IMG/VR virus record: IMGVR_UViG_3300037852_000136
Span: 1,665 to 65,664 of that record
Length of the DNA stretch: 64,000 bases
DNA from: a virus
Taxonomy: Duplodnaviria > Caudoviricetes
Direction: 5' to 3' (one strand)
Made by a program: the position numbers and the translations under genes. The notes under the pieces were generated by a model that saw only the letters and a list, made by a program, of their open reading frames with translations, was not told the origin of the DNA and did not search any database. Below, piece by piece: positions 3,167 through 39,590 of this stretch. The first letter of the stretch is position 1. Every line of letters starts with the position of its first letter.

Positions 3167-3420
3167 TGCGCATCATCATAGCGTTTTTAACTGGCCTTTT
3201 GCTATCAGCCGCAGTGGCACAGAACGTCCAGTCGCCATCAACAAGCAACACCGTGCCCAAGACAGTCGTAGGCAGCCTGCCGGTATGTGCGGCCGGAACT
3301 GAAGGGCTGATGTACGGCGTGACTGACGCTCTTACGCCGGTTGCTCTTTCTGCCGTGACTGGCGGCGGAGCCATCCACGCTCTTGTGTACTGCAATGGAA
3401 CTTCCTGGATCGTCGGATGA
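3166..3420 (+). CDS. Small exported fibre-associated protein
   Basis: MRIIIAFLTGLLLSAAVA|Q; VGSLPVC..VTDA..YCNGTSW motif of the kind seen in phage fibre modules. Confidence 0.75.
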   Translation: MRIIIAFLTGLLLSAAVAQNVQSPSTSNTVPKTVVGSLPVCAAGTEGLMYGVTDALTPVALSAVTGGGAIHALVYCNGTSWIVG

Positions 3421-4301
3421 CCAAACGCATCGCCACTTTCTTCCTGCTGCTTTATGCGGCTTTCTTTTGCTTTCAGCAGCAAGGGCGAAGCGCGGGGTGG
3501 TTGCCGCTTGCCGCGTCTCCAACGGGAGGGTGTTCGCAGGCGACGACATTTCTTGCTCGTACATCTGGTCTAAGCGGCACACAATCAACCGCCTATACGA
3601 CTATGATCTGCGGTATGGTAACGGACGGCACCTACTGCGGAACAGTGCAGGATGGTTTTTATATTTTTGCCACTAATACGACAACGACAGCGAACCTTAA
3701 TCTTTGCTCGACTAGCTTCGGTTTGACTGCGACTGGATCACCAACTTTTACCGCAAACCAGGGATATACCGGAACAGGCGCGACAACCGACTATTTATCT
3801 ACCGGCTTCGTTCCGAGGACAGCCGGCGGGAATATGGTCCTTAATTCAACTTCCTTATCTGTTTGTGTTTTTACCAGTCGAACGACTAACAATAACTATG
3901 TTGAGGTTGGAGTCGGCGGTTCCGGTGGTGATTTTACTTATATAAAGCCTGAGGCTGGAAATTTCGAATCGGACATAAACAACGGAGCCTTTCCAACGGG
4001 CACAAACGCAAATGCGCAGGGTAATTGGATAATATCTAGAACCGGGTCAGCAAATTACGCAGTTTACAACAATGGCGTTGCGACATCATTTTCTCCGCGG
4101 ACCTCTACTTCTGATCAATTGCCAGATGTCGCGGGAATAGACATTCTTGTTTTGAATAATAATAATAGCATCCAATCGGCGACAGCAGATCAGCTTGGCG
4201 CTGTGTGGTTTGGTGCGGGAGTTGGTGCCACGCCAGCCGCAAATATCTCAACTCGTATTAGAGCCTATTTTGCGGCGGTGGGAGCACCAAGTGGTTGCTA
4301 G
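3417..4301 (+). CDS. Lectin-like (concanavalin-type beta-sandwich) virion-type protein with N-terminal signal/anchor
   Basis: Hydrophobic N-terminus; FTANQGYTG..DYLSTGF..ISRT..YNNG pattern; 6 mature Cys. Confidence 0.65.
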   Translation: MTKRIATFFLLLYAAFFCFQQQGRSAGWLPLAASPTGGCSQATTFLARTSGLSGTQSTAYTTMICGMVTDGTYCGTVQDGFYIFATNTTTTANLNLCSTSFGLTATGSPTFTANQGYTGTGATTDYLSTGFVPRTAGGNMVLNSTSLSVCVFTSRTTNNNYVEVGVGGSGGDFTYIKPEAGNFESDINNGAFPTGTNANAQGNWIISRTGSANYAVYNNGVATSFSPRTSTSDQLPDVAGIDILVLNNNNSIQSATADQLGAVWFGAGVGATPAANISTRIRAYFAAVGAPSGC

Positions 4302-12601: not shown

Positions 12602-13072
12602 ATGGCTGATCAGCGCATCGTCCGCCCCGATCCCGATCCGACCGAGCGGACGATCGAGCAGTCGCTGCGGGAGATAGCGAACATCGAAAAATTCCTGTCG
12701 GGCGCGATTAAAGCCCTCCAGGATCTAATCGAGGAGAAGCTGATCGGTGTCGCCACACAATTCCTCATGCGCGATACGGCTCTCGCCGCCGCCTTCAAGG
12801 CTGCACAGGATGCAGTGACAGAACAAAATAAGGCAAGCGCAACGGCGATCTCTAAGAGCGAGCTGGCCACTGCAGAAAGTATCAAGCAATTGCAGACCAT
12901 TTTTCAGACCGCGAGCCAGGCGACCAACGACAAGATTGATGACCTGAAATCGCGGATGGACAAGGGCGAGGGACGGGCAAAAGGGCTCGGCGATGGATGG
13001 GGCTATCTGGTCGGCGGCATCGGTGTGGTTTGGGGAATTGTCGCGACTGTTGAATTGGTAACGAAACACTGA
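12602..13072 (+). CDS. Coiled-coil protein with C-terminal TM (lysis module)
   Basis: Heptad-rich; C-terminal WGYLVGGIGVVWGIV. Confidence 0.7.
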   Translation: MADQRIVRPDPDPTERTIEQSLREIANIEKFLSGAIKALQDLIEEKLIGVATQFLMRDTALAAAFKAAQDAVTEQNKASATAISKSELATAESIKQLQTIFQTASQATNDKIDDLKSRMDKGEGRAKGLGDGWGYLVGGIGVVWGIVATVELVTKH

Positions 13073-13169
13073 AGGATTCACTGTGTTGTCGAAAATGTTC
13101 CCGTAGAACTCGGCTAGGGACGCCGGACGCACCAAGCAAGTGCGCCTCTCTTTCGAAAGAGCTTTGGAG

Positions 13170-13484
13170 ATGTCTGATACGGGACTTATGGACTATGGGA
13201 AATTTGCCCTTGAATTTATAGCCGGAGGCGGGGCACTGGCGGCCATCTTGGTAAAAATGGGGAGAATGGCGGGGACGTTCGAGCAAGTGAGCGATCAGCA
13301 ATCGAAAGAGCTGTTGGAGCTAAAGGTCTCCATCGAAAAGCTGGAAGAGGTAGTAACGACCGTCGCTGTTCAGAAGGTGGTAATGGAGAACCTGCAAAGC
13401 CAGATCACCATGCTGACAAAGTGGTACGACGAATTGAGGCATGGGCGCGGACTGATCCGCAACGGCGAACACGCGAGTGATTAG
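13170..13484 (+). CDS. Membrane-anchored coiled-coil protein (lysis module)
   Basis: N-terminal TM followed by heptad repeats. Confidence 0.65.
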   Translation: MSDTGLMDYGKFALEFIAGGGALAAILVKMGRMAGTFEQVSDQQSKELLELKVSIEKLEEVVTTVAVQKVVMENLQSQITMLTKWYDELRHGRGLIRNGEHASD

Positions 13485-13564
13485 GCAAGAACTTCGTGAC
13501 AGCCGCAGTTGCAGCCGCCGAGGCATTTCCAATAGTCAAATACGTCGCTCATGGTGGTGCATCC

Positions 13565-13831
13565 TCAGGTAGGACTTTGCGTGGTGCTGGTCGGCCCTTG
13601 CCAACCATCGCCGCGCTGGCTGCGGTTCATCTCGTACAACCGCTCGATGGCTCGGTAGGCATCTCCGCAGGCTTTTCCGTCGTTGTCGAACCAAAACGTT
13701 ACCGTACACCAATGATTAGGATCATTGCTGTGAACAGATATGGCGATATCCTTAGCTTTGAGCATCGCGAGTGCGCCCGGTAATCGATTGCGCAATATGT
13801 CGATGGCAGTTCTGATGCCGCTGAACGTCAT
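13565..13831 (-). CDS. Hypothetical protein
   Basis: Last gene of the overlapping minus-strand operon. Confidence 0.55.
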   Translation of the reverse strand: MTFSGIRTAIDILRNRLPGALAMLKAKDIAISVHSNDPNHWCTVTFWFDNDGKACGDAYRAIERLYEMNRSQRGDGWQGPTSTTQSPT

Positions 13832-14031
13832 TTTTCCTCCTTCGCGCCGCCGACATCCTCACCGAGAGCGAGCGCTCGGCTTGCGATCTCGACGGCTTTT
13901 GCGAATTTGCCGTAGGCGCCCTGGCTTCCAGGGGGCAGTTCCACAATCATTCTCATCGACTGCTCAAGATATCCGACTCGACGAGCTAGCCGCTCCAGCC
14001 GCTCGAGGCTTTCTGCCGCCCGGTCTGTCAT
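13828..14031 (-). CDS. Hypothetical protein
   Basis: MTDRAAE start with ATGA overlaps on both sides. Confidence 0.55.
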   Translation of the reverse strand: MTDRAAESLERLERLARRVGYLEQSMRMIVELPPGSQGAYGKFAKAVEIASRALALGEDVGGAKEEK

Positions 14032-14228
14032 CGAATGTCTCCGGCAGGCGGTTCCGGTAGCAGCATCCAATGCGTCGGGTTGAAATCGTCGGTCTCGGGA
14101 ACTCGACATTTCCCCTCATCATCCATGCATCCGATTTGGATGGCACCCAGGGTCGCATCCCAATCTTCGTCGTAAACGAGAATTGCTTCCCATTTCGGCG
14201 CCGTATCGATTGCCTGCCACTCAGCCAC
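14028..14228 (-). CDS. DUF551-like phage protein
   Basis: WQAIDTAPK...PTHWMLLPEPP signature; strong SD. Confidence 0.8.
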   Translation of the reverse strand: MAEWQAIDTAPKWEAILVYDEDWDATLGAIQIGCMDDEGKCRVPETDDFNPTHWMLLPEPPAGDIR

Positions 14229-14255
14229 TGTCGCCTCCTCCTTTGATAGGACTCG

Positions 14256-14549
14256 CTATGGTATCGAGTTCAGGACGCTGATGAAGTGCTCAAGTGCCTG
14301 ATCAGACTTTTCCTTCGCTGCGGTCCATCGCCTTGCGATTTCATCCCCCAGGTCAGGAGCGAATTTGGTCACCGCCTCAGCAAGCGTAACGATCTCGTCG
14401 GCACCGATTGCCTCACGCAGCACGCGGACCACGCGAAGGCATTCGCACCCGGACATACCGCAGAGATCGTCGCCGTCTCCAACGTAATTTGAGCAGCCCT
14501 GTTCATGGGCGAGGATGATGACGAGTTCAGCGTCTGTTATCCGTTGCAT
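14256..14549 (-). CDS. Hypothetical protein (cassette-like array)
   Basis: SD AGGA supplied by the junction repeat. Confidence 0.65.
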   Translation of the reverse strand: MQRITDAELVIILAHEQGCSNYVGDGDDLCGMSGCECLRVVRVLREAIGADEIVTLAEAVTKFAPDLGDEIARRWTAAKEKSDQALEHFISVLNSIP

Positions 14550-14576
14550 GGCAGAGTCCTGTGATGAGACTATTAG

Positions 14577-14852
14577 TTACGCAGCGGTCGGCTCTTTCCG
14601 CCAAATGCGCTTCCAGCCTTCGAACATCAGGCCGCTGATTCCGCCCCTTTGCTGTGGCTTCACAATCTGCGGAGAGGGCGGGTAGTAGGGCATGGCTTGC
14701 GCTGCGGCATTGGCGGCTGGATTGCTTGACGGCACGTAGCCCTCTACGGCCTCGAACGTCACGGTCGGCTCGTGACATGTCATGACGCAGCGCCAGAGCT
14801 TGCCATGCTTGTCCACGTAGATGTCGTCTAGTTGCGCGTCGTGCACTGTCAT
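14577..14852 (-). CDS. Hypothetical protein (cassette-like array)
   Basis: AGGAGG SD; flanked by repeats. Confidence 0.7.
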   Translation of the reverse strand: MTVHDAQLDDIYVDKHGKLWRCVMTCHEPTVTFEAVEGYVPSSNPAANAAAQAMPYYPPSPQIVKPQQRGGISGLMFEGWKRIWRKEPTAA

Positions 14853-14906
14853 TTGATACCTCCTATTGCCGACACCCTACTGATGGCCCTGTGATGAGAG
14901 TCTGTG

Positions 14907-15086
14907 TCATTCTAGCGGCGTGATAGCGATGTGCCGCGCTCGTATAAACTGCCTAAAGCAAGTCTCATAGCACATCCACGGGCGCCAGTTTACGAACGTG
15001 CTCTGGCGACATCGTTTGCAGTAGAACCAGCCTGATTGTGGCTCGCCATCGACGGTAGCCTGTTGGCGTTCACATAAATTGCTCAT
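14907..15086 (-). CDS. Small Cys-rich hypothetical protein, 59 aa (not in ORF track)
   Basis: MSNLCERQQ..YCKRC..MCYETC; bounded by two repeats. Confidence 0.6.
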   Translation of the reverse strand: MSNLCERQQATVDGEPQSGWFYCKRCRQSTFVNWRPWMCYETCFRQFIRARHIAITPLE

Positions 15087-15125
15087 GCCAAGTCCCTACT
15101 GATGGCCCTGTGATGGGTGCTGGCG

Positions 15126-15389
15126 TTACGCGCGGGCTGTCGGCGCCAGCTTCAAATGGATCGAGAGCGTCCTGGCGCCGAGGGTGCGAGTAGCCAGGAC
15201 ATGCTTGCCGTCTTTCCTAACCATGGTTGCGCGCACCTTTTTACTGCGGTCGGTCTCGATATCGCAGAGCACGTCGCACGAAACCGGCTCCATTTCATCG
15301 CAGATTGGGGCAAACCAGCTTTTGATTGCGGCCTTGTCGCGCTCGGTCGCGCAACTCATGCCCTGCCATTCTGACTTAGCCACCGTCAC
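15126..15389 (-). CDS. Hypothetical protein (cassette-like array)
   Basis: AGGAGG SD; repeat follows the stop. Confidence 0.6.
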   Translation of the reverse strand: MTVAKSEWQGMSCATERDKAAIKSWFAPICDEMEPVSCDVLCDIETDRSKKVRATMVRKDGKHVLATRTLGARTLSIHLKLAPTARA

Positions 15390-15485
15390 CTCCTACGTCC
15401 TTATTTTTGGCCGGATGCTTCCTGTCCCCCGGCCGGGACGTTGGCGGTCGATTTGCCGATAGGCCCAGCAAGATCAACCTCGGAA

Positions 15486-15761
15486 TTACGAAGGGCCGAG
15501 ATAGCCGTCCGGCTTCTCGGGCTCCGGAAGTTGCTGCCCAACCATACCGTCCGAGATTCCGGTCCCAACGGTGGGGGAGCACTCTGCGCCATCCCACTTT
15601 GCCAAAAGACCAGATGGCGACATTACGCAGTCTGGATCGAGCGCCCACGCCCACGCCAGCGCCTGCTTAGCCATATAAGCCTTCTGGTGGGTCTCGTGTC
15701 CATTCGGGAGCGAGCAGCACAGTTCATGTAACTTGTCATGCTCACGTTGCAGAAAACCCAT
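15486..15761 (-). CDS. Hypothetical protein (cassette-like array)
   Basis: AAGGAG SD. Confidence 0.65.
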   Translation of the reverse strand: MGFLQREHDKLHELCCSLPNGHETHQKAYMAKQALAWAWALDPDCVMSPSGLLAKWDGAECSPTVGTGISDGMVGQQLPEPEKPDGYLGPS

Positions 15762-15836
15762 CTCATTTCTCCTTTGGTTGCTGATGTAACTTCGACATCC
15801 TACTGATGGCCCTGTGATGAGAGTCGGCGCTGTAAA

Positions 15837-16007
15837 CTACTGAGTTCCGGGCGACGCCCGTCTCCACTTGCGGACAAGCTCTTGCAGGCTGCTTCTGCAG
15901 CTATTGCAAAGATCGATGCCTTTCTCATCGTCCGGCATCGTGACGATGTTCCCCATAGTATATCCCTTTATGTCGGCATCGCACCGATCGCAAAAATTCC
16001 GTCTCAT
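15837..16007 (-). CDS. Small zinc-finger-like protein, 56 aa (not in ORF track)
   Basis: MRRNFCDRC..DLCNSC; GGAG SD. Confidence 0.65.
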   Translation of the reverse strand: MRRNFCDRCDADIKGYTMGNIVTMPDDEKGIDLCNSCRSSLQELVRKWRRASPGTQ

Positions 16008-16066
16008 CTCCGCTCTCCATTTTGCCTGTCCACCGGAACCGACCGAGACTCCTGTTGTGTGTCTAG

Positions 16067-16246
16067 CTAGTGGTCGGCGTTAAGCGCTTGATTGATTTTA
16101 TTGAGTGCAGCCTGCTGGATATCTTTGGCAGCCCCGATCTCTCCATAGGTCGCTATCCACGTTGCGGCGGCCTGTAGGGTGGCGCGCAATGTTTTGATCT
16201 CTCGAATTCTCGCCTGCCGCGTCGCCTCTTCAGGATTGGTCAGCAT
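16067..16246 (-). CDS. Hypothetical protein, 59 aa (not in ORF track)
   Basis: MLTNPEEATRQ...; GGAGGGGG SD. Confidence 0.6.
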   Translation of the reverse strand: MLTNPEEATRQARIREIKTLRATLQAAATWIATYGEIGAAKDIQQAALNKINQALNADH

Positions 16247-16309
16247 TGCCCCCTCCGACTTTCCAGTCCATCGATCTCTCCCGCCAAGTCTCTGTGATGA
16301 GAGTCGGTG

Positions 16310-16525
16310 TCAGCCTTCGGCCGCAAACTTGCGTTTAAGGCGCTCGTATTCCTTGCGATCGCGGTCATCCGCGGCCACATCGGTTGGCATTATCTGCCAG
16401 AAATCCCCCTCATTGACCCAGACGAGTATACAATCTCCAAGCGCTCGCAATGGTGACTGTGTCATCGCAGCGTGCATCTCTGCGGCCGTGCTGCCGGCGG
16501 CATGAATGTAGCGAAGCTGAGCCAT
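16310..16525 (-). CDS. Hypothetical protein
   Basis: AGGAG SD; C-terminal EYERLKRKF. Confidence 0.65.
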   Translation of the reverse strand: MAQLRYIHAAGSTAAEMHAAMTQSPLRALGDCILVWVNEGDFWQIMPTDVAADDRDRKEYERLKRKFAAEG

Positions 16526-16545
16526 TCCGTTCTCCTGCAAAGTCC

Positions 16546-16737
16546 CTACTGAGGATTGGCTTCCATTTCGTCAAAGTGGTCCTTGACGAAAGTCAGCACC
16601 CGCTCTTTGGTGCGCTGAGATTTGAGCGTACCGAGCGTCCCCATGACGCGAACGAACGCGCGCACGGCAGGATCAGATAGCCCAACTCGCAACTGTTCTG
16701 CTTCCTGGCGGTGCTCAACCTTGATCTTAGCGAGCAT
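16546..16737 (-). CDS. Hypothetical protein
   Basis: AGGAG SD; stop codon lies inside a repeat half-unit. Confidence 0.65.
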   Translation of the reverse strand: MLAKIKVEHRQEAEQLRVGLSDPAVRAFVRVMGTLGTLKSQRTKERVLTFVKDHFDEMEANPQ

Positions 16738-16776
16738 TTTTTAGTCTCCTGTGTATCCGTTGGTCTCGACCGATGA

Positions 16777-16938
16777 CTATGTGCCGACGCCAGCAGCTTG
16801 TTTGAGAGCCCGGACGATGGCATTCTTGAGAAGCTGTCTAGCCGTGCGCAGATCGCCTTCCTTGCCGTTACCGGCCGCGAGAGCGAAGGTCAGCCCCTCT
16901 TCGACGATGATCCGTTCGGCCGTCTTGTCGTAGTCCAT
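16777..16938 (-). CDS. Hypothetical protein, 53 aa (not in ORF track)
   Basis: MDYDKTAERII...; GGAGGG SD. Confidence 0.55.
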   Translation of the reverse strand: MDYDKTAERIIVEEGLTFALAAGNGKEGDLRTARQLLKNAIVRALKQAAGVGT

Positions 16939-16980
16939 AGTCACCCTCCCGCTTCCCTATCCGTGCTCAATAGCGCGTCT

Positions 16981-17262
16981 TCACAATTTGAACAGCCCAT
17001 TGCGTATCCCCATGATGTGGCTCTTGCGCGCGCGCGGCGACAGCCTCGGCAGCGGGAACCCTTTCTTCTTTTGTATAAGCGTCTCCATCAACCCGAGAAG
17101 CTCGTTCACATGCTCGATATCGTGCGGGCCGCCGCCGGGACGGGTGCCCTTGAGCACCCAGCCCCGGACGGTCGGATGGGGGCGATCGAACCAGCGGGCT
17201 AAATCCGCCACCCGCAGGTTGCCCCGCTTCATGCACACCTGCAAGCGCCTCTGGATCGTCAT
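16981..17262 (-). CDS. HTH DNA-binding protein
   Basis: LRVADLARWFDRPHPTVRGWV helix-turn-helix pattern. Confidence 0.7.
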   Translation of the reverse strand: MTIQRRLQVCMKRGNLRVADLARWFDRPHPTVRGWVLKGTRPGGGPHDIEHVNELLGLMETLIQKKKGFPLPRLSPRARKSHIMGIRNGLFKL

Positions 17263-17453
17263 TTCGGATACACCCTCAGTTCAACTACTCGCCCCACATA
17301 GAACGCCTTTTGGTGGGCAGCGGTAGCCGGTATTTCGATCGACTGCCGACCGAGAGGTCTCCAGTCGGCGGCTGAAGGCGGACTCCCTTGGAAAGACACT
17401 ACTAGCGTGTCTCCATGAGATTCCACCCACACCACTTCGCACCGGAGTTTCAC
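17259..17453 (-). CDS. Hypothetical protein
   Basis: Overlapping start and stop in operon. Confidence 0.55.
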   Translation of the reverse strand: MKLRCEVVWVESHGDTLVVSFQGSPPSAADWRPLGRQSIEIPATAAHQKAFYVGRVVELRVYPK

Positions 17454-18523
17454 TGCGGTTTCCCGAAGATGTTATCGAGCATCCCCTTCATGGCGGGATC
17501 CGGGTCGACCGCTTGGGTGGCGATGCCGAAGGGCGGCCCACCCCCGGGAGCGGGTTCAGGGCGGAAGGGAGCCGGGCCGGCTTGCCCGCCGCCAAAACCC
17601 GCTGGCTCGGGGTGAACCGCCTGTGCCGCGCCAGCGGCATTAGCGGCCTCGATCTCTGCCTTGGTCCGTCGGCGACGCCGCGCCGCGGGCTCAGCAGTGG
17701 GGGCAGCCGACGAGGGGCTCTTCCCAAAAGCAGGGGAGGCCGCAGTCGTAAAGCCCGGAGGCGTCTGGGCCTGAGCAGCTGGTGGGGACAAAGGGGGGGC
17801 TTGCCCGCCTCCGGCGGGTGGAGCCACCAGCGCCGCCTGAATCGGCCGATCGTTCCTGCCCACCAGTACGTCGGTCTTCTTCTCGATCGTTGCCGCCTCG
17901 CGGGCATTGAACAAAGTCTCGTCGATGTAGGCCGTGGCCTCGAACGTGAGCACGCCGTTCTTGCCCTTCTCGAAGGCGAGGCGGGTGACGACATCCGACA
18001 GGTCGGTCTGCTGACCCTTGAACTTGTCCGTGTAGCCCTTCCACGCCTTGAAGGACCCTGGCGTCACCCGGAACTGGAACACCATCGCGGGGTACTTGGG
18101 CAAGATCACTGCCGTCCACTTCTCGTCCCGACACGCCTTGATGGCCTTGCCGCTGATCTTGGACACGTCCGAGCCGCGGGCGTTCCACTCGCAAGTGGCG
18201 CACGTCGCGGATTGCGGAGTGATGGCTTCGATCGAGGGGGCAACGCCGTTGGCGGACCAGCAGGTGGGAGGCTCATTCGAGCCGTCCACATAGTCGTTCT
18301 CGTAATACTGCTTGCACACCAACTCGCTGCGATCGACGAAGCAAACGTCCAGGTACTTCTCGGGCACCTCCGCCTTGTTGCCGGCGGCATCCACCAAGGT
18401 GAACTCGTTGCCGCGGATCGAGATGTGCGGCGGCAGCGACCCGCCGATGCCGTCGGCAGCGCCTTCGGCGACGCGTTGGGATTGTCGATTTTGGAGGTAG
18501 GTGGGAAGGGCGAACTGGCTCAT
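17450..18523 (-). CDS. ssDNA-binding/annealing-like phage replication protein
   Basis: PHISIRG..CWSANG.AP..CATCEWN..GS..GKAIKACR; Pro/Ala-rich disordered C-terminus; position next to helicase. Confidence 0.6.
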   Translation of the reverse strand: MSQFALPTYLQNRQSQRVAEGAADGIGGSLPPHISIRGNEFTLVDAAGNKAEVPEKYLDVCFVDRSELVCKQYYENDYVDGSNEPPTCWSANGVAPSIEAITPQSATCATCEWNARGSDVSKISGKAIKACRDEKWTAVILPKYPAMVFQFRVTPGSFKAWKGYTDKFKGQQTDLSDVVTRLAFEKGKNGVLTFEATAYIDETLFNAREAATIEKKTDVLVGRNDRPIQAALVAPPAGGGQAPPLSPPAAQAQTPPGFTTAASPAFGKSPSSAAPTAEPAARRRRRTKAEIEAANAAGAAQAVHPEPAGFGGGQAGPAPFRPEPAPGGGPPFGIATQAVDPDPAMKGMLDNIFGKPQ

Positions 18524-18567
18524 TTGATCTTTCCTTTGTTGCGAAGATACCACTCGTGCTGCAGCTT

Positions 18568-18978
18568 CTAGGATTTCCTGATATTTATGTGTGTGTCAAA
18601 TTGACCTGTAACTCCGGGAGGAAATTCTTTATTGTGCGCGTCGAGATACTCTCGTAGAGGCTCGATGGCGGGCGCCCGCAACTGCATCAAAGCATTCCCG
18701 ACCGTATCCCAATTATCCAAGCAGAAGTCGAGGAACGTGTCGCGGTCCTCGATCTTGGGCGTAAGCGTGGTCTGCCGGTAGGCGGTGCCATGCTCGGTTC
18801 GGAAATTTTCCCACTTCTGGGAGATCGAGAGCGCCAGCAGCTGCTCGTCCATCTGCTGCAAGCGGGCACGGTACGGCGCAAAGTAGTCGCTCAGCCGCTT
18901 GCTCTCGGTCTTGAGCCAAGTGTCGAGCTGCACCCTTGCGGCGATGAGAGCGGCGGGGTCAGAGGGAAGGTCATTCAT
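18568..18978 (-). CDS. Conserved phage replication-module protein
   Basis: Coiled coil, then FRTEHGTAY..PPGV..INIRKS. Confidence 0.65.
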   Translation of the reverse strand: MNDLPSDPAALIAARVQLDTWLKTESKRLSDYFAPYRARLQQMDEQLLALSISQKWENFRTEHGTAYRQTTLTPKIEDRDTFLDFCLDNWDTVGNALMQLRAPAIEPLREYLDAHNKEFPPGVTGQFDTHINIRKS

Positions 18979-19126
18979 CGCAGTACCCTGCCAGTTCTAC
19001 TGCTGCTTCAAGCCGCTCGATTTCGGCAATGGCTTGCGTGACGAGATCGATATCGTCGTCACCCATACCAACAACTCGTCGCATACGCTCACGCAACTGC
19101 TTCAGTTCATAAATCAGGTTCGTCAT
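18971..19126 (-). CDS. Hypothetical protein, 51 aa
   Basis: Fills the gap with overlapping start and stop. Confidence 0.5.
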   Translation of the reverse strand: MTNLIYELKQLRERMRRVVGMGDDDIDLVTQAIAEIERLEAAVELAGYCDE

Positions 19127-20715
19127 AGCTCTCCCCTCTGCACCGCGTCCAGCAACGCGCCCTGCATGGACTGGTTATTCTCAAGGCGCTTGAAAATCTC
19201 CTGCTCCAGCTTGTTGCTCACCAGTTGCACGACCGTCACAGGATACTTCTGGCCAGGCCGGTGGGCGCGCTTGTTCGCCTGCATATATAGCTCGGCCTTG
19301 TCCGTAGGTCCGAACCACACAACTGTCTGAGCCATCCACAAGTTGAGCCCATGTGCCATCGTGCCAGGGTCAGCAACGAGTATTCTCGGCTCGGGTCCTT
19401 CCTGGAAGGCTGCGAAGATCCTGGAGCGTTCCTTCTGGCTGACATCGCCGTTCACCACGTCGCACGACCAGTGCTTGTGAAGCTCCTTGTAGACGAGGTT
19501 CACCACGTTCGTCAACCCCACGAAGCACAATATTTTCCCAGGCGCTTCCTGGATGACAGCCTTAAGCTCGTCCATCCGGGGCTTGGCGTCGAGCGTGTGG
19601 GAGACGTGGTTGTGATCGTAAATAGCGCCTAAACTGATCTGCAGGAACTTGGTGCGCACCGCCGCCTCGTTGACGGCCGTGATCGGCTGGCCTTGTTTAA
19701 CCACCACCTGCAGGTCCCGCTTGAGCGCCGCCATGTGGTGCTTCTGCTCGGTAGTCAGCTCCACCTGCCGCTGCTGCACCGTCATCTCAGGCCCGTCCCA
19801 CACGTCCTTGATGTCGTACCGGATCGAGGGCGTCAGCAGCTTGCGCGCCTTCTCGTAGCCGTCCCGCTGCGGCTTCCAGATAAATTGCGACACCTTGATC
19901 ATGGATTCGTTGCGGAACTGCTCCTTGCCCTTGCCGAAGGCGTTGTTTACCAGCTTGGCCAGCCCGTAGGCATCGGTGGGAGCGGTGGGGGTAGGAGTGC
20001 CGGTCAAGAGCCAGAGGTAGTCCCGCTTGCCGATGATCTGGCGGGCGAGCTTGTGCCGCTTGGTGCCGGCGTCTTTGTAGGCGCTGGCCTCGTCCACGAT
20101 TATGAGGCGAATGTCTTGGCGATCAGCCAGTCTTTTCGAAAAGCCGTCCAATTCAAATCGTTTGTGCGTGTGTGCGCCCACGCCCACTCCATCGAAATTG
20201 ACAATGTAAAAATCAACGTCCTTGGATAGCTCCGCATCACGACGGCTAGCAGAGCCGTGGAGGATAGCAAACGTGCGGCGGTTGAGGAAGTTCTTGAAGA
20301 TGGCATCAGCCCATACTCGCTGCATGATGGAAAGAGGACATACGATCAGGGCCTTCAACTCTGGTTGTTGCTTCATGAGCCAGTCGGCTGCCCACAAGGT
20401 CGCCAATGTTTTGCCAACTCCCATGTCGCTCAAGCAGAAGCAGCGAGGGTGCAGCACCAGGAAGTTGGCAGTGACCTTCTGACTGTCGTAAGGTTTGATG
20501 CCGGGGGCGTGCGGCCAGTCGTAGGATGAGTCGATGACGGGCACAACCGGGTGCCCCAGCCACCTCAACACCTGACTGTTGCGCAAGGTGCGCGGTACCC
20601 CAAATGCGTGCCCGTTAAGCTGCCGCGCCTCGGGAATGTGCGTCAAAATCGACTGCCCGGCTGCGTAAGGCAGATCAGGGTAGACGAGCACGTTGTGGGC
20701 TTGGTCGAAGATCAT
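19123..20715 (-). CDS. SNF2/SF2 DNA helicase
   Basis: DMGVGKT, IIVDEAS, LTGTP, HGLNL, QANKRAHRPGQ. Confidence 0.92.
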   Translation of the reverse strand: MIFDQAHNVLVYPDLPYAAGQSILTHIPEARQLNGHAFGVPRTLRNSQVLRWLGHPVVPVIDSSYDWPHAPGIKPYDSQKVTANFLVLHPRCFCLSDMGVGKTLATLWAADWLMKQQPELKALIVCPLSIMQRVWADAIFKNFLNRRTFAILHGSASRRDAELSKDVDFYIVNFDGVGVGAHTHKRFELDGFSKRLADRQDIRLIIVDEASAYKDAGTKRHKLARQIIGKRDYLWLLTGTPTPTAPTDAYGLAKLVNNAFGKGKEQFRNESMIKVSQFIWKPQRDGYEKARKLLTPSIRYDIKDVWDGPEMTVQQRQVELTTEQKHHMAALKRDLQVVVKQGQPITAVNEAAVRTKFLQISLGAIYDHNHVSHTLDAKPRMDELKAVIQEAPGKILCFVGLTNVVNLVYKELHKHWSCDVVNGDVSQKERSRIFAAFQEGPEPRILVADPGTMAHGLNLWMAQTVVWFGPTDKAELYMQANKRAHRPGQKYPVTVVQLVSNKLEQEIFKRLENNQSMQGALLDAVQRGEL

Positions 20716-21017
20716 TTTGAAGGGGGAGGCGTGAGGCCCCAGACCGACATGGCGATTAGGAATCCCTCGAATGAATCGGCCCAAAAGGCGGCGCCGCCCG
20801 CCGCGATGATGGCCTTCATGCACTGCTCCTGGCGAGGCGTAGGCTTCTGGCCCTGCGCCTTCGTCTCGATACCAACAAAACGCCCGTTGATGCAGCAGAG
20901 GAAGTCGAGAGTCTGCGTGCCGTAGCCGTGTGGCACGGGCATGTAGCGGTACATGCGGGGGAGTTGATCGAGGTAGCGCTTGACCTTGATCTTGAGCAAG
21001 CCCTCTTCGGTAGTCAC
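20712..21017 (-). CDS. VRR-NUC domain nuclease (Holliday junction resolvase-like)
   Basis: E..LDFLC..FVGIETKA..KPTPRQ. Confidence 0.85.
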   Translation of the reverse strand: MTTEEGLLKIKVKRYLDQLPRMYRYMPVPHGYGTQTLDFLCCINGRFVGIETKAQGQKPTPRQEQCMKAIIAAGGAAFWADSFEGFLIAMSVWGLTPPPSK

Positions 21018-21865
21018 TTCGGCCTCGCCACAAAATGGTTCTCGCAGTCTTCGACCGAGCAGTGACCGCAGAGGCCGCTCTTGCGCTTCTCGAACACTTC
21101 GCCGCCCCCCGGCAGTAGCCGTTCGAACTCCGCCACAAGCTTGGTCACCTTCTGCCAAGTGCCGTTGGTATCGGACAGCTCGAACATCGTCCCGAGACGA
21201 TTTTCCTTTAGCCACGCGTAAGAGCCAACGATCTTAGTGAGATGCGGGAACTTGCAGTGAAGCAGGAGCGCGTTGGTCTCCAGCTCGAACGGCGACTCGT
21301 AGCCGGAGGATCCCGTTTTCCAGTCGTTGATGTAGGCGGTCGCACCGTTAATGAGCGTCACGTCGATCTTGCCACGGAAGAACACTCCGTCGTCAAACCA
21401 CCCGCAAGGCTTGCCCTCGCGGGTGATGCCGAGCTTCTGCTCGGCCGTTGCACCGCGCCCGTCGAACGCGGCAACGATCGGCTCCCACTGTTGCATGTTG
21501 GGGGGGAGGGGCTTGCCGCCAAGGCGATATTCTAGTGCCGTGTGAACGGCATTGCCCCACTTCATCGCTTCGGTCTCGACGAACGGCTGGTCCTTCTTAA
21601 CGTAACGCCGCCAAGTCTGGTGGGGGCAGACGTTCGCGTAGTTATTAAGCAAAGTGTACGAATACACGAGGGGTTTACCCGCCTTTGGCGGGCGAACTAG
21701 CGAGGGCGGAATGGGGCCGGGATCGTAGGCTGCTGTCATCGCGGCTTCCTTGTTGACGATCTCATTAATCTCATGGATCGCACGGAAATAGCCAGTGCCC
21801 GTGCGCTTCATGTACTCGTCGGTATCGATCAGCTCGCCATTCAAGGAGAACTGCAAGCCGCTCAC
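21014..21865 (-). CDS. PD-(D/E)xK (Cas4/RecB-like) exonuclease
   Basis: YSYT..CP, GNAVH, RGKIDV, INDWKTG, C-terminal CGHC..C. Confidence 0.85.
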   Translation of the reverse strand: MSGLQFSLNGELIDTDEYMKRTGTGYFRAIHEINEIVNKEAAMTAAYDPGPIPPSLVRPPKAGKPLVYSYTLLNNYANVCPHQTWRRYVKKDQPFVETEAMKWGNAVHTALEYRLGGKPLPPNMQQWEPIVAAFDGRGATAEQKLGITREGKPCGWFDDGVFFRGKIDVTLINGATAYINDWKTGSSGYESPFELETNALLLHCKFPHLTKIVGSYAWLKENRLGTMFELSDTNGTWQKVTKLVAEFERLLPGGGEVFEKRKSGLCGHCSVEDCENHFVARPK

Positions 21866-22266
21866 GCAAACACCTTCGCGAGCGCTGCCACGATCCTGGC
21901 ACGCGCCGACTTGGGCGCCGTCTCGATTCGATGAACCAGATCGCTGAACAAGCCGCAGTCTTCATCCGCCAACCCGCGCGTCACTTGAAGGGCTTCGAAC
22001 AGCGTGAACTTGGGAGCGCGGGGTTGCTTAACCGCACGCTTGCGCGTGGGCACTTTGTCTGGCGGCAGGAGGCTATCAGCGCCCAGCGCCTTCACCTGTT
22101 TCGCAATGTCGTGCTTTGGTTTGCGCGTTGCCTTCGCCGACTTAGCGGTTTTTGGCTTACGACTCTTGCGCGTCTTCGGCGCTTCCTGCTCAAAGAGCGC
22201 GCCAGTCCCCAAAGCGTTGGGCGGAGGCTGAGTCGCAAACGGGGAGAACGCGGGGGTGTCGTTCAT
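21862..22266 (-). CDS. Lys/Arg-rich hypothetical protein
   Basis: AAGGA SD before MNDTP; basic low-complexity tract. Confidence 0.6.
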   Translation of the reverse strand: MNDTPAFSPFATQPPPNALGTGALFEQEAPKTRKSRKPKTAKSAKATRKPKHDIAKQVKALGADSLLPPDKVPTRKRAVKQPRAPKFTLFEALQVTRGLADEDCGLFSDLVHRIETAPKSARARIVAALAKVFA

Positions 22267-22462
22267 GGGGTTGATTCCTTTGTTGGCTAGCCCCGCTGAC
22301 GCGGGGTAAAGGGCAAGAACAAAGCCACTGAAGAAGTACACTATACTCACCATGATGAGCAAGGTCAACATTTGCGATGTGCCATCCGGTGTCGAGAAAG
22401 TCCTGCACGAGATGGTGGGGGACGAAGCAGAACCATCGCTCGCCCCGCGTTAACGGGGTCAT
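22190..22462 (-). CDS. Hypothetical protein
   Basis: ATGA overlap; FVPHH..GWH..HHGEYSVL..WLCSC. Confidence 0.5.
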   Translation of the reverse strand: MTPLTRGERWFCFVPHHLVQDFLDTGWHIANVDLAHHGEYSVLLQWLCSCPLPRVSGASQQRNQPHERHPRVLPVCDSASAQRFGDWRAL

Positions 22463-22641
22463 TTCGCGTTTCCCCGAATTGTTTTCACGGCGTCCAGTAT
22501 CCTCTCGGCCAAGATTTCAGGGTCCATGCCGGGAGACTGTCCTATCATGACGAACGCTCCAACCCCTCCCGCGGTCGCGGGATCCACATCCACGATCAAT
22601 ATGCCGGGAGGTTGCTGCACCACCGTTGCTAGTAGTTTCAT
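22459..22641 (-). CDS. Hypothetical protein
   Basis: Start overlaps the polymerase stop. Confidence 0.5.
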   Translation of the reverse strand: MKLLATVVQQPPGILIVDVDPATAGGVGAFVMIGQSPGMDPEILAERILDAVKTIRGNAK

Positions 22642-24512
22642 TTTGAGTATCTCTCTCCCAAATGAGCCTCGCAATCGAGCGGAAGGCCCGGCAACCACGG
22701 CACCTCGCGCTTCATCTCCGCAACGCAGCGCTCGACATGCCACGCTTCCTTGCCATCCTTGGGGATAAGTACCAGCAATTCGTCGTAGGGCCAGTTGAGA
22801 ACCCGATAACCCATGCGCGTGATTCGCACCATGGCTTGCGAGACGATAACGCGCGACACGCCCTCGCAGATGTTCTGCACCAGCTTGGATCCCCACATTT
22901 TCTTCCAGCCGTGCCGTGTCTTGACCCGCCAGTAGCCGCCGGCCTCGAACTCGCGCACCTCTTCGGTTTCATCGGGGTGGTGATATTCAAGGGTGTCGTA
23001 CAGCATGGCAATGCCGCTAGGAAGAATGAGCTTGTGATCGCGGACGGTCAACGGCCCCCACTGCATTTCCGCGCCTCCAGCGAGCCGCGCCAGCATCTTA
23101 CCGGCTTGCGCCCAGTAGCCGATGTTCTTGGCACAGACCGACGGGTTGTCCTCGCGGTACATCGCTACGAACCGAGTGGCGTCCTCGATCGAGATCTCCA
23201 CTGGTGGACCGTACAGCCCCGCCTTCGCGGTTGCCTTGAACTTCTTGCCCGCGGCACCATATCCGCACATGAGTCGCCCTTGCTTTCCCATTCCTCGCTT
23301 CGCTACCATCTCCTCGTAGCGGGGATCGCCATGCTCGGGCTTATATATTTCCTCCTCGTAGAACCGCGAGGCGACAGGAATGTAGACATCCTTGCCTTGG
23401 CGGAACTGCTGGATCACAGGCTCATCCGGGCCGCCCGCCAAGTAGTGCAGCACGCGGCATTCGATCTGACTCGAATCGATCGGCGCCAACAGGTAACCTT
23501 CAGGCGCCATAATTGAGCGCCTCAGATCGGACGCGCGCTTGAAGTTGAGCCAGTTGGCTCCATCCCCCCCTGATGGACGAAGAGTACCAGCTCCCGCGTA
23601 GCGCAGATAAACACACAGAGGTCCCCGACGAGCCATCCAGCCCAACGTTTCGGCACGTGTCTGCATGCCGGTGCTCTTGGCGCCGATGCGAGCCTCTGCC
23701 AGTCCTCTAACTCGGTCATTCTCATCCTCCAAAAGGTCGCGCATGAAATCGTCGGTCTTGGCGATGGCAGGAATAGGGCCGTTCTTGCCGTTCTTATATT
23801 CGATCTCGACCCCTTCGGCCTCCAAAAGAGCAATGAACTTGTCGGCCGACTGCAGCTCGGTCTCGCTGATGGCGAGCGCCTGCATCCGTGCTTGCTTCTG
23901 ATCGCGCTCGCGTTCCCAGATCTTGCCCAGCAGTTCGATGTCGGCGCCGAGCACGGGATTTACGAACATCTTGATGATCGTATCTATCACCTCGAACTCT
24001 TCAGGCGGCATCTGCGGGCCGAGCTTCTTAAACAAGTCCCACGTCAAATTCACATCATGGCAAGCACCGTCCGCCACTTGCTGTTTGACTTCCTCAGACA
24101 GTTCCCACCAATGCCGGCCCTTAAACAGTTGGTAAGGGACGGTTTTAGCCATCATCCCGTACTGCTTGGCAAGCGCATCAAGGCCGACAGACAAATGGTT
24201 GCCGATCAGCAGCCGCGCGCACGAAAGCGTATCGAACCAAAACTTCGGTCGCACGCCGTAGTGATGCGAGAGGATTAATCCGTCAAAGGCGGCGTGATGC
24301 GCCAGTATCGCGGTGTCCGACCAATCTTCTTCCTTAAAAATGTGAACGCACTCTTCGTGCGTATAAAAGCGCGGCTCGTGGTGTTCGCTCCACTTGATGG
24401 CCCAGCCGTGACATTCAAACTTCGGATCTCTGCAGTACGACTCCGTATTCATCTTGGACAGAGTCATAGTGTCGTCAAAGTACGTTTCTGCGTCAGCACA
24501 GATGATTCTCAC
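22638..24512 (-). CDS. DNA polymerase family A with 3'-5' exonuclease
   Basis: Exo DAETY, HHAAFD, ACHDV; motif A IDSSQIECRVL; motif B KRGMGKQGRLMCGYG; motif C PYDELLV. Confidence 0.92.
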   Translation of the reverse strand: MRIICADAETYFDDTMTLSKMNTESYCRDPKFECHGWAIKWSEHHEPRFYTHEECVHIFKEEDWSDTAILAHHAAFDGLILSHHYGVRPKFWFDTLSCARLLIGNHLSVGLDALAKQYGMMAKTVPYQLFKGRHWWELSEEVKQQVADGACHDVNLTWDLFKKLGPQMPPEEFEVIDTIIKMFVNPVLGADIELLGKIWERERDQKQARMQALAISETELQSADKFIALLEAEGVEIEYKNGKNGPIPAIAKTDDFMRDLLEDENDRVRGLAEARIGAKSTGMQTRAETLGWMARRGPLCVYLRYAGAGTLRPSGGDGANWLNFKRASDLRRSIMAPEGYLLAPIDSSQIECRVLHYLAGGPDEPVIQQFRQGKDVYIPVASRFYEEEIYKPEHGDPRYEEMVAKRGMGKQGRLMCGYGAAGKKFKATAKAGLYGPPVEISIEDATRFVAMYREDNPSVCAKNIGYWAQAGKMLARLAGGAEMQWGPLTVRDHKLILPSGIAMLYDTLEYHHPDETEEVREFEAGGYWRVKTRHGWKKMWGSKLVQNICEGVSRVIVSQAMVRITRMGYRVLNWPYDELLVLIPKDGKEAWHVERCVAEMKREVPWLPGLPLDCEAHLGERYSK

Positions 24513-24817
24513 AACGCCACCAACCGGTAAACCGCCCCATGTCCCATCGTCGAGTTGATGACGCATCCGAGCGAGCGGAGTTTCTGCTTGTTCATCTGCA
24601 TGATGTGCACGCTCACGATCGATAGCGATGTTGCTCCGCCGTCGGGATCATCAGCGTAAGCGTAACTCGCCACCTGATCGCGCGTGGCACCCTCGGGATG
24701 CTTAGCGATGAACTCGTAGATGCGCGCCTTGATGGGCGACTTCGGCGCAAACGGGTTGGCGGGCGGGAGGAGTTGGCCGCAGGTGGGACAATTCTTAGTC
24801 ACTATATTATTCCCCAC
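24509..24817 (-). CDS. Winged-helix (OmpR C-terminal-like) DNA-binding protein
   Basis: CPTCG; TRDQV..IVSVHIMQMNK..INSTMGHGAVYRL. Confidence 0.7.
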   Translation of the reverse strand: MGNNIVTKNCPTCGQLLPPANPFAPKSPIKARIYEFIAKHPEGATRDQVASYAYADDPDGGATSLSIVSVHIMQMNKQKLRSLGCVINSTMGHGAVYRLVAL

Positions 24818-25209
24818 CTGCGAAGGACCACGGCGGTTCCAATAATGAACATGACTACCAAAGACATTTCTACAAAATCTCCACTGAAATCCGAGTTGGG
24901 ATTGGCAACTCTTATCGCTTGCTCGGCTGCTACAATAGCTGGCGACGATGGACTTACGAAAATCGTCATCGTTGTTGTCCTTCCATCCTATGCTTAAGCC
25001 TCACGAAACCCCAAGCAACCGGCACCCAGAACAGAACCGCGAGGGCGTGGGAGAGGAGAAAGTGGATCACGCCGTCCCTCCTTCGCCTACCACCTGTAAA
25101 TCTGATGCCTGGCGTCGGCTTTCCGACCGGCTCGTGCGTCGTGCCGCAAGCCACGCCTTTTGTTCGTCGGTCATTTCCGGTTAGTCCTGTGATGAGAATC
25201 GCCGCTATT

Positions 25210-25428
25210 TCAACCCACCCGAACCACAAGAGGAGTTCGCCGGAAGACCCGGTAAAAACCCTCTTGTTTCTCGAAAAAGGCGCGGGAGCCGGCTGCGCGG
25301 ATGTCTCGCACCCGTTGTTTGGCCTGCTTACGCAGATCGCCACGCGATGTATCGCAAATATCGCAGTCGCATTCGTATCGAACTCCGTTCCGGGTGCGGA
25401 AGCTGTCAGTTTGGTGTTTGAATGGCAT
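25210..25428 (-). CDS. Hypothetical protein followed by junction repeat
   Basis: AGGAGG SD; repeat copy at 25183-25197. Confidence 0.6.
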   Translation of the reverse strand: MPFKHQTDSFRTRNGVRYECDCDICDTSRGDLRKQAKQRVRDIRAAGSRAFFEKQEGFYRVFRRTPLVVRVG

Positions 25429-25553
25429 TGCCGCCTCCTCCTGTTGCCTCTCTACTGAAATTCTTTCGACTCACGCCGCGACCCGGTAGTGACTCACCTG
25501 TTCGGCAATTTTAAGCGCCTTGATCGCAAGTTTCAGCTTTTGCTTATCAGAAG

Positions 25554-25811
25554 TCACCAATCGAACCTCCTCTTGTCCTTGAGCCACGCATCGATGCCAG
25601 CGCACGCGGCCTTGTAGCGGAGCCACACAGTTGGGTGGATCTTGCGACCCTTGCGCTCGGGCGAGCGCTCCCCCTTGTAAGTGCGGGGCGGCGTCTTGCC
25701 AACTTCCAGCCAATACAAAGAGCTTACAGAGTAACCAATGAGTGGGCCAAGCTCGGCATGGGACAGTCCGTGCCGCTCGCGCCATGCTTTTGCTTTCTCG
25801 CTTTCAGTCAT
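25554..25811 (-). CDS. XRE/Cro-type HTH regulator
   Basis: KAWRERHGLSHAELGPLIGYSVSSLYWLEVG; first gene of the leftward operon. Confidence 0.85.
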   Translation of the reverse strand: MTESEKAKAWRERHGLSHAELGPLIGYSVSSLYWLEVGKTPPRTYKGERSPERKGRKIHPTVWLRYKAACAGIDAWLKDKRRFDW

Positions 25812-25817
25812 AACTAC

Positions 25818-25863
25818 TCCCTACGATGTCGCAAAGAGTAAGTCAACCCCGCCGAGAGGCGGG
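25818..25863 (-). promoter_or_regulatory. Leftward sigma70-like promoter with upstream GC hairpin
   Basis: TTGACT-N17-TAGGGA; spacer contains TACTCTTT; CCCGCC-TCTC-GGCGGG upstream. Confidence 0.6.
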
Positions 25864-26076
25864 CAGGTCACACGAGATTGTGAACGTGGGATGACGGAAG
25901 TGAGGGGTAGCGTGTTCATCCCGCGCCAGCGGGGGAAAGAAGCGGCCCGCCGGGTGAGGGCGGGCCGAGAGGTGCTGCACAACAGGTTGTGTCCAGGGAG
26001 GACATACGCCAACCCAAGAGGAGGTCGACGCCACGTGTATTTGTGGCGTGCCTCCCTGAAAATGTCAAGGAGTAGT

Positions 26077-37105: not shown

Positions 37106-37186
37106 ATGGGAATAACGAAAGCGTTTCGTTCTGAAGCTGCTTGCCGCGCGCTAGCGCGGTTCACTACGCCGGGGAGGCGCAAGCCC

Positions 37187-39463: not shown

Positions 39464-39590
39464 CCTATTCGGGGCCTGACATTTTATCGCGTCTCGATTC
39501 GGTGACGATTTGCGGTGTCGTGATTCAACGGCCGGCGCATATCCAGCGCTCGTTGTGGACGCGTTTTTGGGAAGAAAGATCGTGGATCGT

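Follow-up and report, generated by a model that had tools for sequence, protein, structure and literature searches.

The window analysed here is a stretch of 64,000 nucleotides (nt), bases 1665-65664 of IMG/VR virus record IMGVR_UViG_3300037852_000136, a phage genome of ~66 kb (65,664 bp) from a soil metagenome that is rated complete by CheckV, has a G+C content of ~58% and contains no tRNA genes. Its leftward (minus-strand) early/replication operon houses an array of small genes whose junctions share a short repeat, and this junction repeat is the subject of the present analysis. The array begins after g1, the last gene of the conserved operon core, and forms the operon tail: 13 small co-oriented open reading frames (ORFs), g2-g14, of 53-97 amino acids (aa), lie on the minus strand at 13565..16938, with a G+C content at third codon positions of 0.57-0.75, which is of coding type, and the g14 end of the array converges on rightward genes. 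No Pfam or PHROG family above cut-off was found for g2-g11, and g12 (14028-14228) matches the profile of DUF551 above cut-off (E 1e-5). These outcomes speak neither for nor against the proposal of an earlier note on this DNA that the genes are candidates for anti-defence or host takeover. The last three genes, g12, g13 (13828-14031) and g14 (13565-13831), are linked via ATGA overlaps and have no repeat between them, in contrast to the genes upstream, among which are g3, a 63-aa ORF at 16546-16737, and g4 at 16310-16525. The ORFs that flank the repeat are not paralogous, since the best pair in an all-against-all blastp comparison, g6/g9, reaches only E 0.022, and five ORFs of the array contain 4-5 Cys each. 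Thus, the description given in the earlier note, of unrelated small ORFs, several of them Cys-rich, is accurate.

We define the repeat as an asymmetric 12-nt core, CCATCA[C/GT]AGG, that is present either once or as a tandem duplicate of 33 nt. The whole record has five exact copies of the 12-mer TCTCATCACAGR, always on the minus strand (14558-14569, 14888-14899, 15811-15822, 16291-16302 and 25186-25197), and a copy with two mismatches lies on the same strand at 15107-15118. The shorter core CATCACAGR is matched 6 times, never on the plus strand; 0.91 matches are expected, and none of 100 shuffles reaches 6. When up to two mismatches are allowed in the 12-mer, the count (9 versus 7.6 expected) is not significant, and the signal sits in the exact copies. 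The second unit of the doubled form, CATCAGTAGGR, was found with at most one mismatch at 14875, 15094, 15798 and 16544 as well as at 46517, five matches against 1.3 expected, a count reached in 2 of 100 shuffles; the lone match at 46517 is probably due to chance. This second unit comes after the first in three copies and stands alone at 16544. Counting degenerate and second-unit copies, seven junctions carry the repeat, six of them within 2.5 kb: these are 6 of the 13 junctions from g1 to g14, to which one of the 13 junctions considered upstream of g1 is added. Every copy in the window is intergenic or overlaps a stop codon and is co-oriented with transcription. The earlier note had likewise placed the motif on the minus strand after stop codons, and this holds once three of its positions are corrected, by one to four nt, to 14888, 25186 and 16544-16554. 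The repeat is therefore a real, statistically solid and lineage-specific junction repeat in a tail of hypervariable ORFan genes.

The seven junctions, all on the minus strand, share a layout and differ in how much of the repeat they hold. At junction A, between g10 and g11 (14550..14576), the stop codon TAA is followed by 7 nt, TCTCATCACAGG, ACTCTGCC and ATG; only the first unit is present, and its AGGA, 7 nt before the ATG, is the only sequence resembling a Shine-Dalgarno (SD) element, as the earlier note had proposed for the copy at 14558. Junction B, between g9 and g10 (14870..14902), contains the doubled repeat GACTCTCATCACAGGGCCATCAGTAGGGTGTCG and a separate AGGAGG SD downstream, and junction C, between g8 and g9 (15089..15121), contains a doubled copy with a degenerate 5' end (ACCCATCACAGGGCCATCAGTAGGGACTTGGC), followed by ATG, with AGGGA as the SD. 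Junction D, between g6 and g7 (15793..15825), is doubled as well, and the natural indel described below has its right-hand breakpoint in the second unit of this copy (15798-15808). At junction E, between g4 and g5 (16284..16305), TGA and 7 nt precede TCTCATCACAGA and GACTTGGC, again with the first unit only. Junction F, between g3 and g4 (16536..16556), has the second unit only (CCTCAGTAGGGACTTTGC, 16544-16554), within which lie both the TAG stop codon of g3 (16546-16548) and the left-hand breakpoint of the same 746-nt indel. The seventh, junction G, is found near the start of the same operon between a 72-aa ORF and a 34-codon ORF (25179..25200), where TCTCATCACAGGACTAACC is followed by an ATG at 25173. 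Two further junctions of the array show possible degenerate copies by eye, namely g2 to g3 (16738..16776; ACACAGGAGACT, compare CACAGAGACT in E) and g5 to g6 (16008-16066; AACAGGAGTCT).

When the copies are aligned, they share the sequence from stop to start, that is, TAA or TGA, about 7 nt, the core, the tail GACTTGGC and sometimes then ATG, and TCTC (or its equivalent) starts 7 nt past the stop codon in four of six copies in the window. The 5' half of the repeat, UCUCAUCAC, is rich in C and A and poor in G. The doubled copies at B and D are identical at 32 of 33 nt, which agrees with the near-identity reported earlier, as does the lone second unit that supplies the stop codon at F. In the doubled form, the core is repeated in tandem with a period of 12 nt, and the 3' tail is absent between the two units; hence the two units are not two complete junctions, and the suggestion that doubled sites represent empty cassettes has to be given up. 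With respect to start codons, the copies fall into two groups. At A, C and G, as well as in the related contig L017 described below, the AGGA or AGGGA of the motif sits 6-10 nt ahead of the ATG, the motif as a whole ending 7-11 nt ahead of it, and there is no second SD-like sequence, whereas at B, D, E and F the motif is 19-51 nt from the start codon and a separate AGGAG-type SD is present further downstream. On the opposite (plus) strand, a near-copy of the second unit plus tail (ATCCTCAGGTAGGACTTTGC) overlaps the 3' end of g14 at 13561-13580 and forms an inverted pair with junction F, with 17 of 20 nt matching without gaps. This near-copy may be due to chance, since other 20-nt inverted pairs score equally high; if it is real, it and F bracket g4-g14 in inverted orientation.

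A natural variant of the array was found at the repeat itself. Three soil-metagenome runs contain the stretch: X1 and X2, which may be its source, contain all of it, and X3, which belongs to another study, fragments only, such that array positions not covered by X3 are given no weight here. One X3 contig (305 nt) matches 16546-16770 at 224 of 225 nt and then jumps to 15799, extending for 78 nt beyond the joint. The joint skips 746 nt (15800..16545), exactly g4, g5 and g6, a segment that is present in the window, X1 and X2. Seven letters at the joint fit both sides, and 15799-15806 and 16545-16552 are the same 8 nt, CCTACTGA (TCAGTAGG on the minus strand), such that both breakpoints lie in the second repeat unit, one in F and the other in D, and both the g7 leader and the TAG that ends g3 are retained in the variant. 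Contigs of X3 that cover core genes are ~88-93% identical to the window, versus 224 of 225 nt for g3. Nine other joints over 14.5 kb lie in core genes and come from more divergent or short-armed contigs. In the array there are 132 maximal direct-repeat pairs of at least 8 nt, 13 of which pair one motif copy with another. By a midpoint test, both copies are intergenic in 15 of the 132 pairs, and 12 of the 13 motif-motif pairs are among them; the thirteenth is the very pair used by the indel and overlaps the stop codon of g3. Motif pairs thus make up most of the intergenic pairs, and the repeat is nearly the only homology in the array that permits a viable in-register event.

The setting of the array becomes clear from related contigs, which were fetched with g1 (16981-17262), a conserved 93-aa protein without a Pfam or PHROG family, as the anchor. 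They comprise ten viral contigs (L007-L016, 35-86% aa identity in g1) and three metagenome contigs (L017, L018 and L020); L019 is the same record as L007 and is not counted separately. In the window, the operon starts with a Cro-like helix-turn-helix gene (25554-25811, HTH_31), and its core, likewise on the minus strand, comprises a family-A DNA polymerase (polA, 22638-24566), a PD-(D/E)XK exonuclease (21014-21865), an SNF2 helicase (about 19123-20700), a 136-aa protein (p136), which lies between the helicase and the following gene, and a 367-aa "ssb-like" protein (17450-18553), a working label without family support in Pfam. The listed SNF2 ORF extends from 19123 to 21138 (671 aa from a TTG) and overlaps the upstream nuclease gene by more than 100 nt; its first ~150 codons look non-coding, and the real start is probably near 20700. 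In the ten viral contigs, polA, the nuclease, SNF2, p136 and the ssb-like gene are syntenic with g1 where the fetched stretch reaches, and in the three shorter metagenome contigs SNF2, p136 and the ssb-like gene are so as far as those contigs extend. None of g2-g14 has a tblastn match (E <= 1e-3) in the 13 related contigs, which by a rough gene call hold ~2 to ~10 other small ORFs after g1. With the core conserved but g2-g14 replaced by other ORFs, this phage family has a hypervariable tail of ORFans beyond g1.

One relative carries the repeat. In L017, a contig of 1658 nt whose g1 shows 88% aa and ~82% nt identity, a junction ~580 nt downstream of g1 reads TAA, 6 nt, TCTCATCACAGGACTC, CCC, ATG. 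The 16-mer TCTCATCACAGGACTC is identical to that of the window and sits between ORFs of 106 and 78 aa that resemble no gene of the window. The 5' flank of the L017 copy (TAACGCCAC) is like that of copy C, and its core and tail are like those of copy A.

Considered together, these observations suggest that the repeat may be an unstructured leader for translation initiation, shared by several genes, at which short-homology recombination also crosses over, a reading to which we would give about an even chance. As a junction module, the repeat takes up the short spacers that separate unrelated ORFans, either entirely or in their 5' part, and its AGGA or AGGGA is the only SD-like element for half of the downstream genes. 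Because the repeat is almost the only homology between unrelated neighbours, it could serve as the site at which they cross over, by single-strand annealing or replication slippage, and such events would delete, insert or reassort whole genes in register while leaving the stop codon and the next ribosome site intact. Copies followed by a second SD would be junctions where a gene with its own ribosome site became joined behind the leader. The occurrence of the first unit only, the second unit only or both, together with mosaic 5' flanks and 3' tails, points to repeated crossovers in different registers, and the near-identity of B and D (32 of 33 nt), which extends to flank positions at which C is different, argues for recent common ancestry or junction conversion and not for selection alone. 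Two results favour a junction role, namely the X3 indel at the repeat and the identical 16-mer between other genes in L017. Recombination of this kind would presumably be driven by homology rather than targeted by an enzyme, and might be catalysed by the phage, by the host or arise from slippage during replication; the 746-nt event may have been either a deletion or an insertion.

Several points weigh against this reading. The indel is a single event in one contig of depth 2.7, and X3 was aligned at 85% likeness, a setting in which joints can stem from other organisms; the figure of 224 of 225 nt covers one arm of the contig, and the 78-nt arm lies outside it. Neither X1 nor X2 shows a variant joint in the array. 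With 13 motif-motif pairs among 132, a deletion through random microhomology would hit such a pair at p ~0.1. At B, D, E and F the motif is not the SD, thus a role in translation is not general. Moreover, the motif is absent from 12 of the 13 relatives, and a comparable junction repeat belonging to the arrays of these relatives was not found either. In the closest pair of relatives (L017:250-635 and L018:2700-3085, 92% nt identity), g1 and ~100 nt of the next ORF are alike and the sequences then diverge inside the ORF, which indicates that the mosaic joints of the family are not tied to junction repeats. Furthermore, homologues of g3 (53-56% identity) and g4 (46-64%) are found in other viral contigs (L113-L116 and L118-L121) with no motif nearby, and the g4 homologue of L120, a distant family member, even occupies the equivalent tail, ~3 kb past a distant homologue of g1, again without the motif; hence arrays of this family also shuffle without it. 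The idea of the earlier note that gain and loss of genes would break within the repeat is supported in part, by the X3 indel, both ends of which lie in the second unit, but not by L017 and L018. Similarly, of the two routes it offered for gene shuffling, microhomology gains from the indel in the repeat and from the L017 16-mer between other genes, whereas site-specific recombination does not.

One may argue that the repeat is instead a regulatory site for a DNA- or RNA-binding factor of the phage or host, the doubled form binding two protomers 12 nt apart, with recombination being incidental, which we regard as possible although rather unlikely. The strict strand bias and intergenic position would fit such a site, as would direct repeats spaced by 12 nt, about one helical turn, and the 12-mer is kept between the window and L017 despite a g1 identity of only ~82% at the nt level; similar anatomy is also seen in Start-Associated Sequences (SAS) (PMC3203893), the repeats of coliphage TLS (PMC11447400) and stoperators (PMC9283540). 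However, the copies are confined to one 2.5-kb tail and one other site instead of being spread across operons, their distance from the start codon varies from 6 to 51 nt, and no candidate binder was identified. In addition, 12 of 13 relatives with the same conserved core lack the motif, hence no conserved core protein can be its dedicated binder. Likenesses to a DnaA box and to IHF, CsrA (A(N)GGA) and sigma-54 sites were considered and dropped, as none appears to fit all copies. It is improbable, in turn, that the repeat is a functionless relic, the leftover ends of old duplications or of acquisitions from one donor with a common spacer. Its patchiness among relatives and the degenerate copies at C, g2 to g3 and g5 to g6 are what a relic would leave, but five exact 12-mers and an identical 16-mer in L017, all of them between unrelated genes, speak against neutrality, since neutral spacers would have decayed. 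A signal acting at the RNA level on a polycistronic early transcript, such as a site of endoribonuclease processing, an antitermination element or a Rho-related element, would explain why the repeat is found only on the sense strand, just past stops and with a C-rich, G-poor 5' half, yet we hold it to be quite improbable: eight junction RNAs, folded with RNA parameters, fold no better than dinucleotide shuffles (z = -1.02, +1.26, +0.91, +1.53, -0.58, +0.60, +0.29 and +1.82) and share no stem or fold, and the repeat has no Rfam match at E <= 1. There is also no terminator-like site at any copy on which an antiterminator could act (13 such sites in the region versus 12.5 in shuffles). Known nut- and put-type sites are, moreover, far sparser than six per 2.5 kb.

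Single-subunit RNA polymerase promoters ending in GGG bear a loose likeness to the motif, and a conserved, co-oriented intergenic element of 20-33 nt upstream of genes could in principle be a phage-specific promoter of that type or a site for a middle-gene activator. We consider this highly improbable, as Sigma70_r2 and r4_2 have no match in the record although the control genomes were positive, and an E. coli-type consensus scan of 13000-26500 gave two sigma-70-like sites only (22368 and 25536), neither of which lies at a copy or junction. A T7-type RNA polymerase (PF00940) was not matched in the record either, in a search that is weak in that it was positive in 0 of 14 control genomes, and none of the ten largest ORFs matches this family. 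The integron-like, site-specific system favoured by the earlier note, in which a recombinase would recognise the 12-nt site and excise or integrate units of gene plus site, appears very improbable as well. Promoterless ORFs each with a co-oriented site ~7 nt past the stop, one precise in-register indel between two sites and a resolvase-family gene in the genome are all compatible with it. Nevertheless, no tyrosine integrase was found, PF00589 being unmatched in the whole 65.7-kb record while the same search was positive in 14 of 14 control genomes, and the sole recombinase, a resolvase-family serine recombinase of 275 aa (37106-37933, plus strand), is encoded 20 kb away with no motif nearby. 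Serine-recombinase crossover sites typically have a dyad, and the site here is short and asymmetric, without a dyad or an attC-like fold; the use of the first unit, the second unit or both with variable flanks further suggests crossovers driven by homology and not a fixed cleavage point. A related proposal, to which we give little more credence and which is about as doubtful as an RNA signal, is a dedicated cassette exchange by the phage, with the 12-nt core as the minimal recognition site of a phage-encoded enzyme: the resolvase-type recombinase, or the PD-(D/E)XK exonuclease plus an annealing partner that has escaped recognition, would target the junctions. No annealing protein was recognised in the phage, though the exonuclease is encoded. 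If such exchange were true, ORFans and their translation leader would move as units within and between co-infecting relatives, in a kind of "mini-integron" that lytic phages would possess without either an integrase or an attC fold, and the near-identity of g3 in X3 (224/225), compared with the ~88-93% of the core, would reflect a recent cassette transfer.

The wider search returned few matches. The window has no blastn match among named phages, and tblastn with the ssb-like protein reaches only ~30% identity, in phages of Rhizobium, Xanthomonas, Pseudomonas and Acinetobacter. Among prophage relatives in genomes, the sole match is a partial one of 19 residues in a Pirellulales metagenome-assembled genome, which therefore gives no clue to the host. 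For g10, no close relative was found in viral_contigs. The doubled 21-mer has 0 matches in viral_contigs and 0 in genome_contigs, and the 16-mer TCTCATCACAGGACTC has five in viral_contigs, all single and at chance level: that in L021 falls within a gene belonging to an unrelated structural module and has the same flanking sequence in L024, and the remaining three are single copies in contigs of 35-56% G+C. The 14-mer is found in 87 single-copy stretches of viral_contigs, which equals the chance expectation from the 16-mer count; 80 of the 87 were screened, and none combines a second copy with a relationship to the window, nor has any a tblastn match. The best-looking of them, L036, in which the match is intergenic and precedes an ATG, was rejected because it is the only copy in a record of 61.8 kb.

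Other features were noticed in passing. The rightward half of the window genome encodes an FkbM-type methyltransferase (39510-40439, plus strand). In L013:1293-3956, the polymerase matches that of the window in two pieces (1293-2261 and 3051-3956) that are ~790 nt apart, and the gap may reflect an intein, an intron, the insertion of a homing endonuclease or a gene that is split. The tail after g1 of L008 (12367-13080) contains direct repeats of 33-50 nt, in five and three copies, 62-79% identical and spaced by 69-359 nt, which look iteron- or origin-like and are unrelated to the window motif. Near the Cro side of L007 (958-1300) there is a tandem array with a 15-nt period (CCTCGCGGGCGCCGA-like, at least 14 copies), and L011 has an array with a 12-nt period at its very start (1-110).

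A description of the motif was not found in the open full-text literature, a weak negative since subscription journals were not covered, but several published systems invite comparison. The closest system in effect is the promoter-early stem-loop (PeSL) of T4-type phages, a mobile regulatory cassette that mediates modular shuffling (Arbiol et al. 2010, PMC2839356). PeSLs are ~100 bp long and combine a strong sigma-70 promoter with a stem-loop terminator, and they bound 10 of 14 differential events in phi1/RB49 (PMC2839356). Both elements span the interval from the upstream stop to the downstream SD or start in hyperplastic ORFan regions; in either case the element flanks the ORFans by which close relatives differ, and whole genes are lost or gained in register through recombination between the copies on either side. 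The one such case here is the X3 joint, a chimeric second unit of F and D in a single low-depth contig. In contrast, the repeat of the window is 12-33 nt long, has no sigma-70-like promoter, no stem-loop or terminator and no stable fold, and lies inside one operon of a phage that is not T4-like, with one event compared with 10 of 14. Excised mini-circles belong to the PeSL description, and the material analysed here comprised contigs. As both the promoter and the stem-loop are absent, the repeat is no PeSL, although it appears to work in the manner of one.

The nearest counterpart in anatomy is found in Cluster K mycobacteriophages, whose SAS is a 13-bp, asymmetric, SD-containing sequence (Pope et al. 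2011, PMC3203893). Nearly every SAS is 3-7 bp away from its start codon; each genome has 11-19 of them, and they are conserved throughout the cluster (PMC3203893). Like SAS, the repeat is short and asymmetric, keeps one orientation, accompanies only non-structural genes, stands upstream of unrelated gene families has an SD-like core and sometimes overlaps the upstream stop, and neither element has an assigned function. It differs from SAS in being 6-51 nt from the start, in having seven copies and in its distribution, as it is present in L017 but absent from 12 of 13 relatives, and inverted repeats such as those of extended SAS (ESAS) are not seen here. Stoperators are spread over the genome and bound by the immunity repressor, which blocks elongation. 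In Cluster A mycobacteriophages they are asymmetric repressor sites of 13-14 bp (PMC9283540) and resemble the repeat in lying in short intergenic spaces oriented with transcription, but no repressor or lysogeny module was identified in the window phage and its copies cluster in a 2.5-kb tail. Coliphage TLS and other T1-like phages carry 18 AT-rich intergenic direct repeats of 21 nt, ~76 nt upstream of starts (PMC11447400). These repeats are co-oriented, intergenic and upstream of starts in a phage that lacks an RNA polymerase and a sigma factor of its own, as here, but they are genome-wide and AT-rich, and are not reported to be linked with gene gain or loss. The attC sites of integrons are imperfect inverted repeats (R''-L''/L'-R') of ~57-141 bp that fold single-stranded, and clusters of attC sites lacking IntI (CALINs) are without this integrase by definition. 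The window array is similar in that its co-oriented, mostly promoterless small ORFs are followed by a repeated site (6 of 13 junctions), but it has no IntI, no attC palindrome or folded bottom strand, and a site of only 12-33 nt, hence the integron analogy fails.

The turnover of small ORFans in phages is usually ascribed to random illegitimate recombination followed by selection. In T4-type phages, PeSLs are a documented case of a repeated regulatory junction that channels ORFan turnover (PMC2839356). The present locus suggests the same logic with a far smaller element, a leader of 12-33 nt with no promoter or hairpin, in an unrelated soil phage lineage of ~58% G+C. The evidence is thin, as it consists of one natural indel and one shared junction, and amounts to a good lead and not to a demonstrated system. 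If confirmed, short shared leaders with a ribosome site would provide gene shuffling in register with a substrate that is general and easy to overlook, and repeat leaders of this kind would be of practical use as markers of hot spots of accessory genes in phage genomes from metagenomes.

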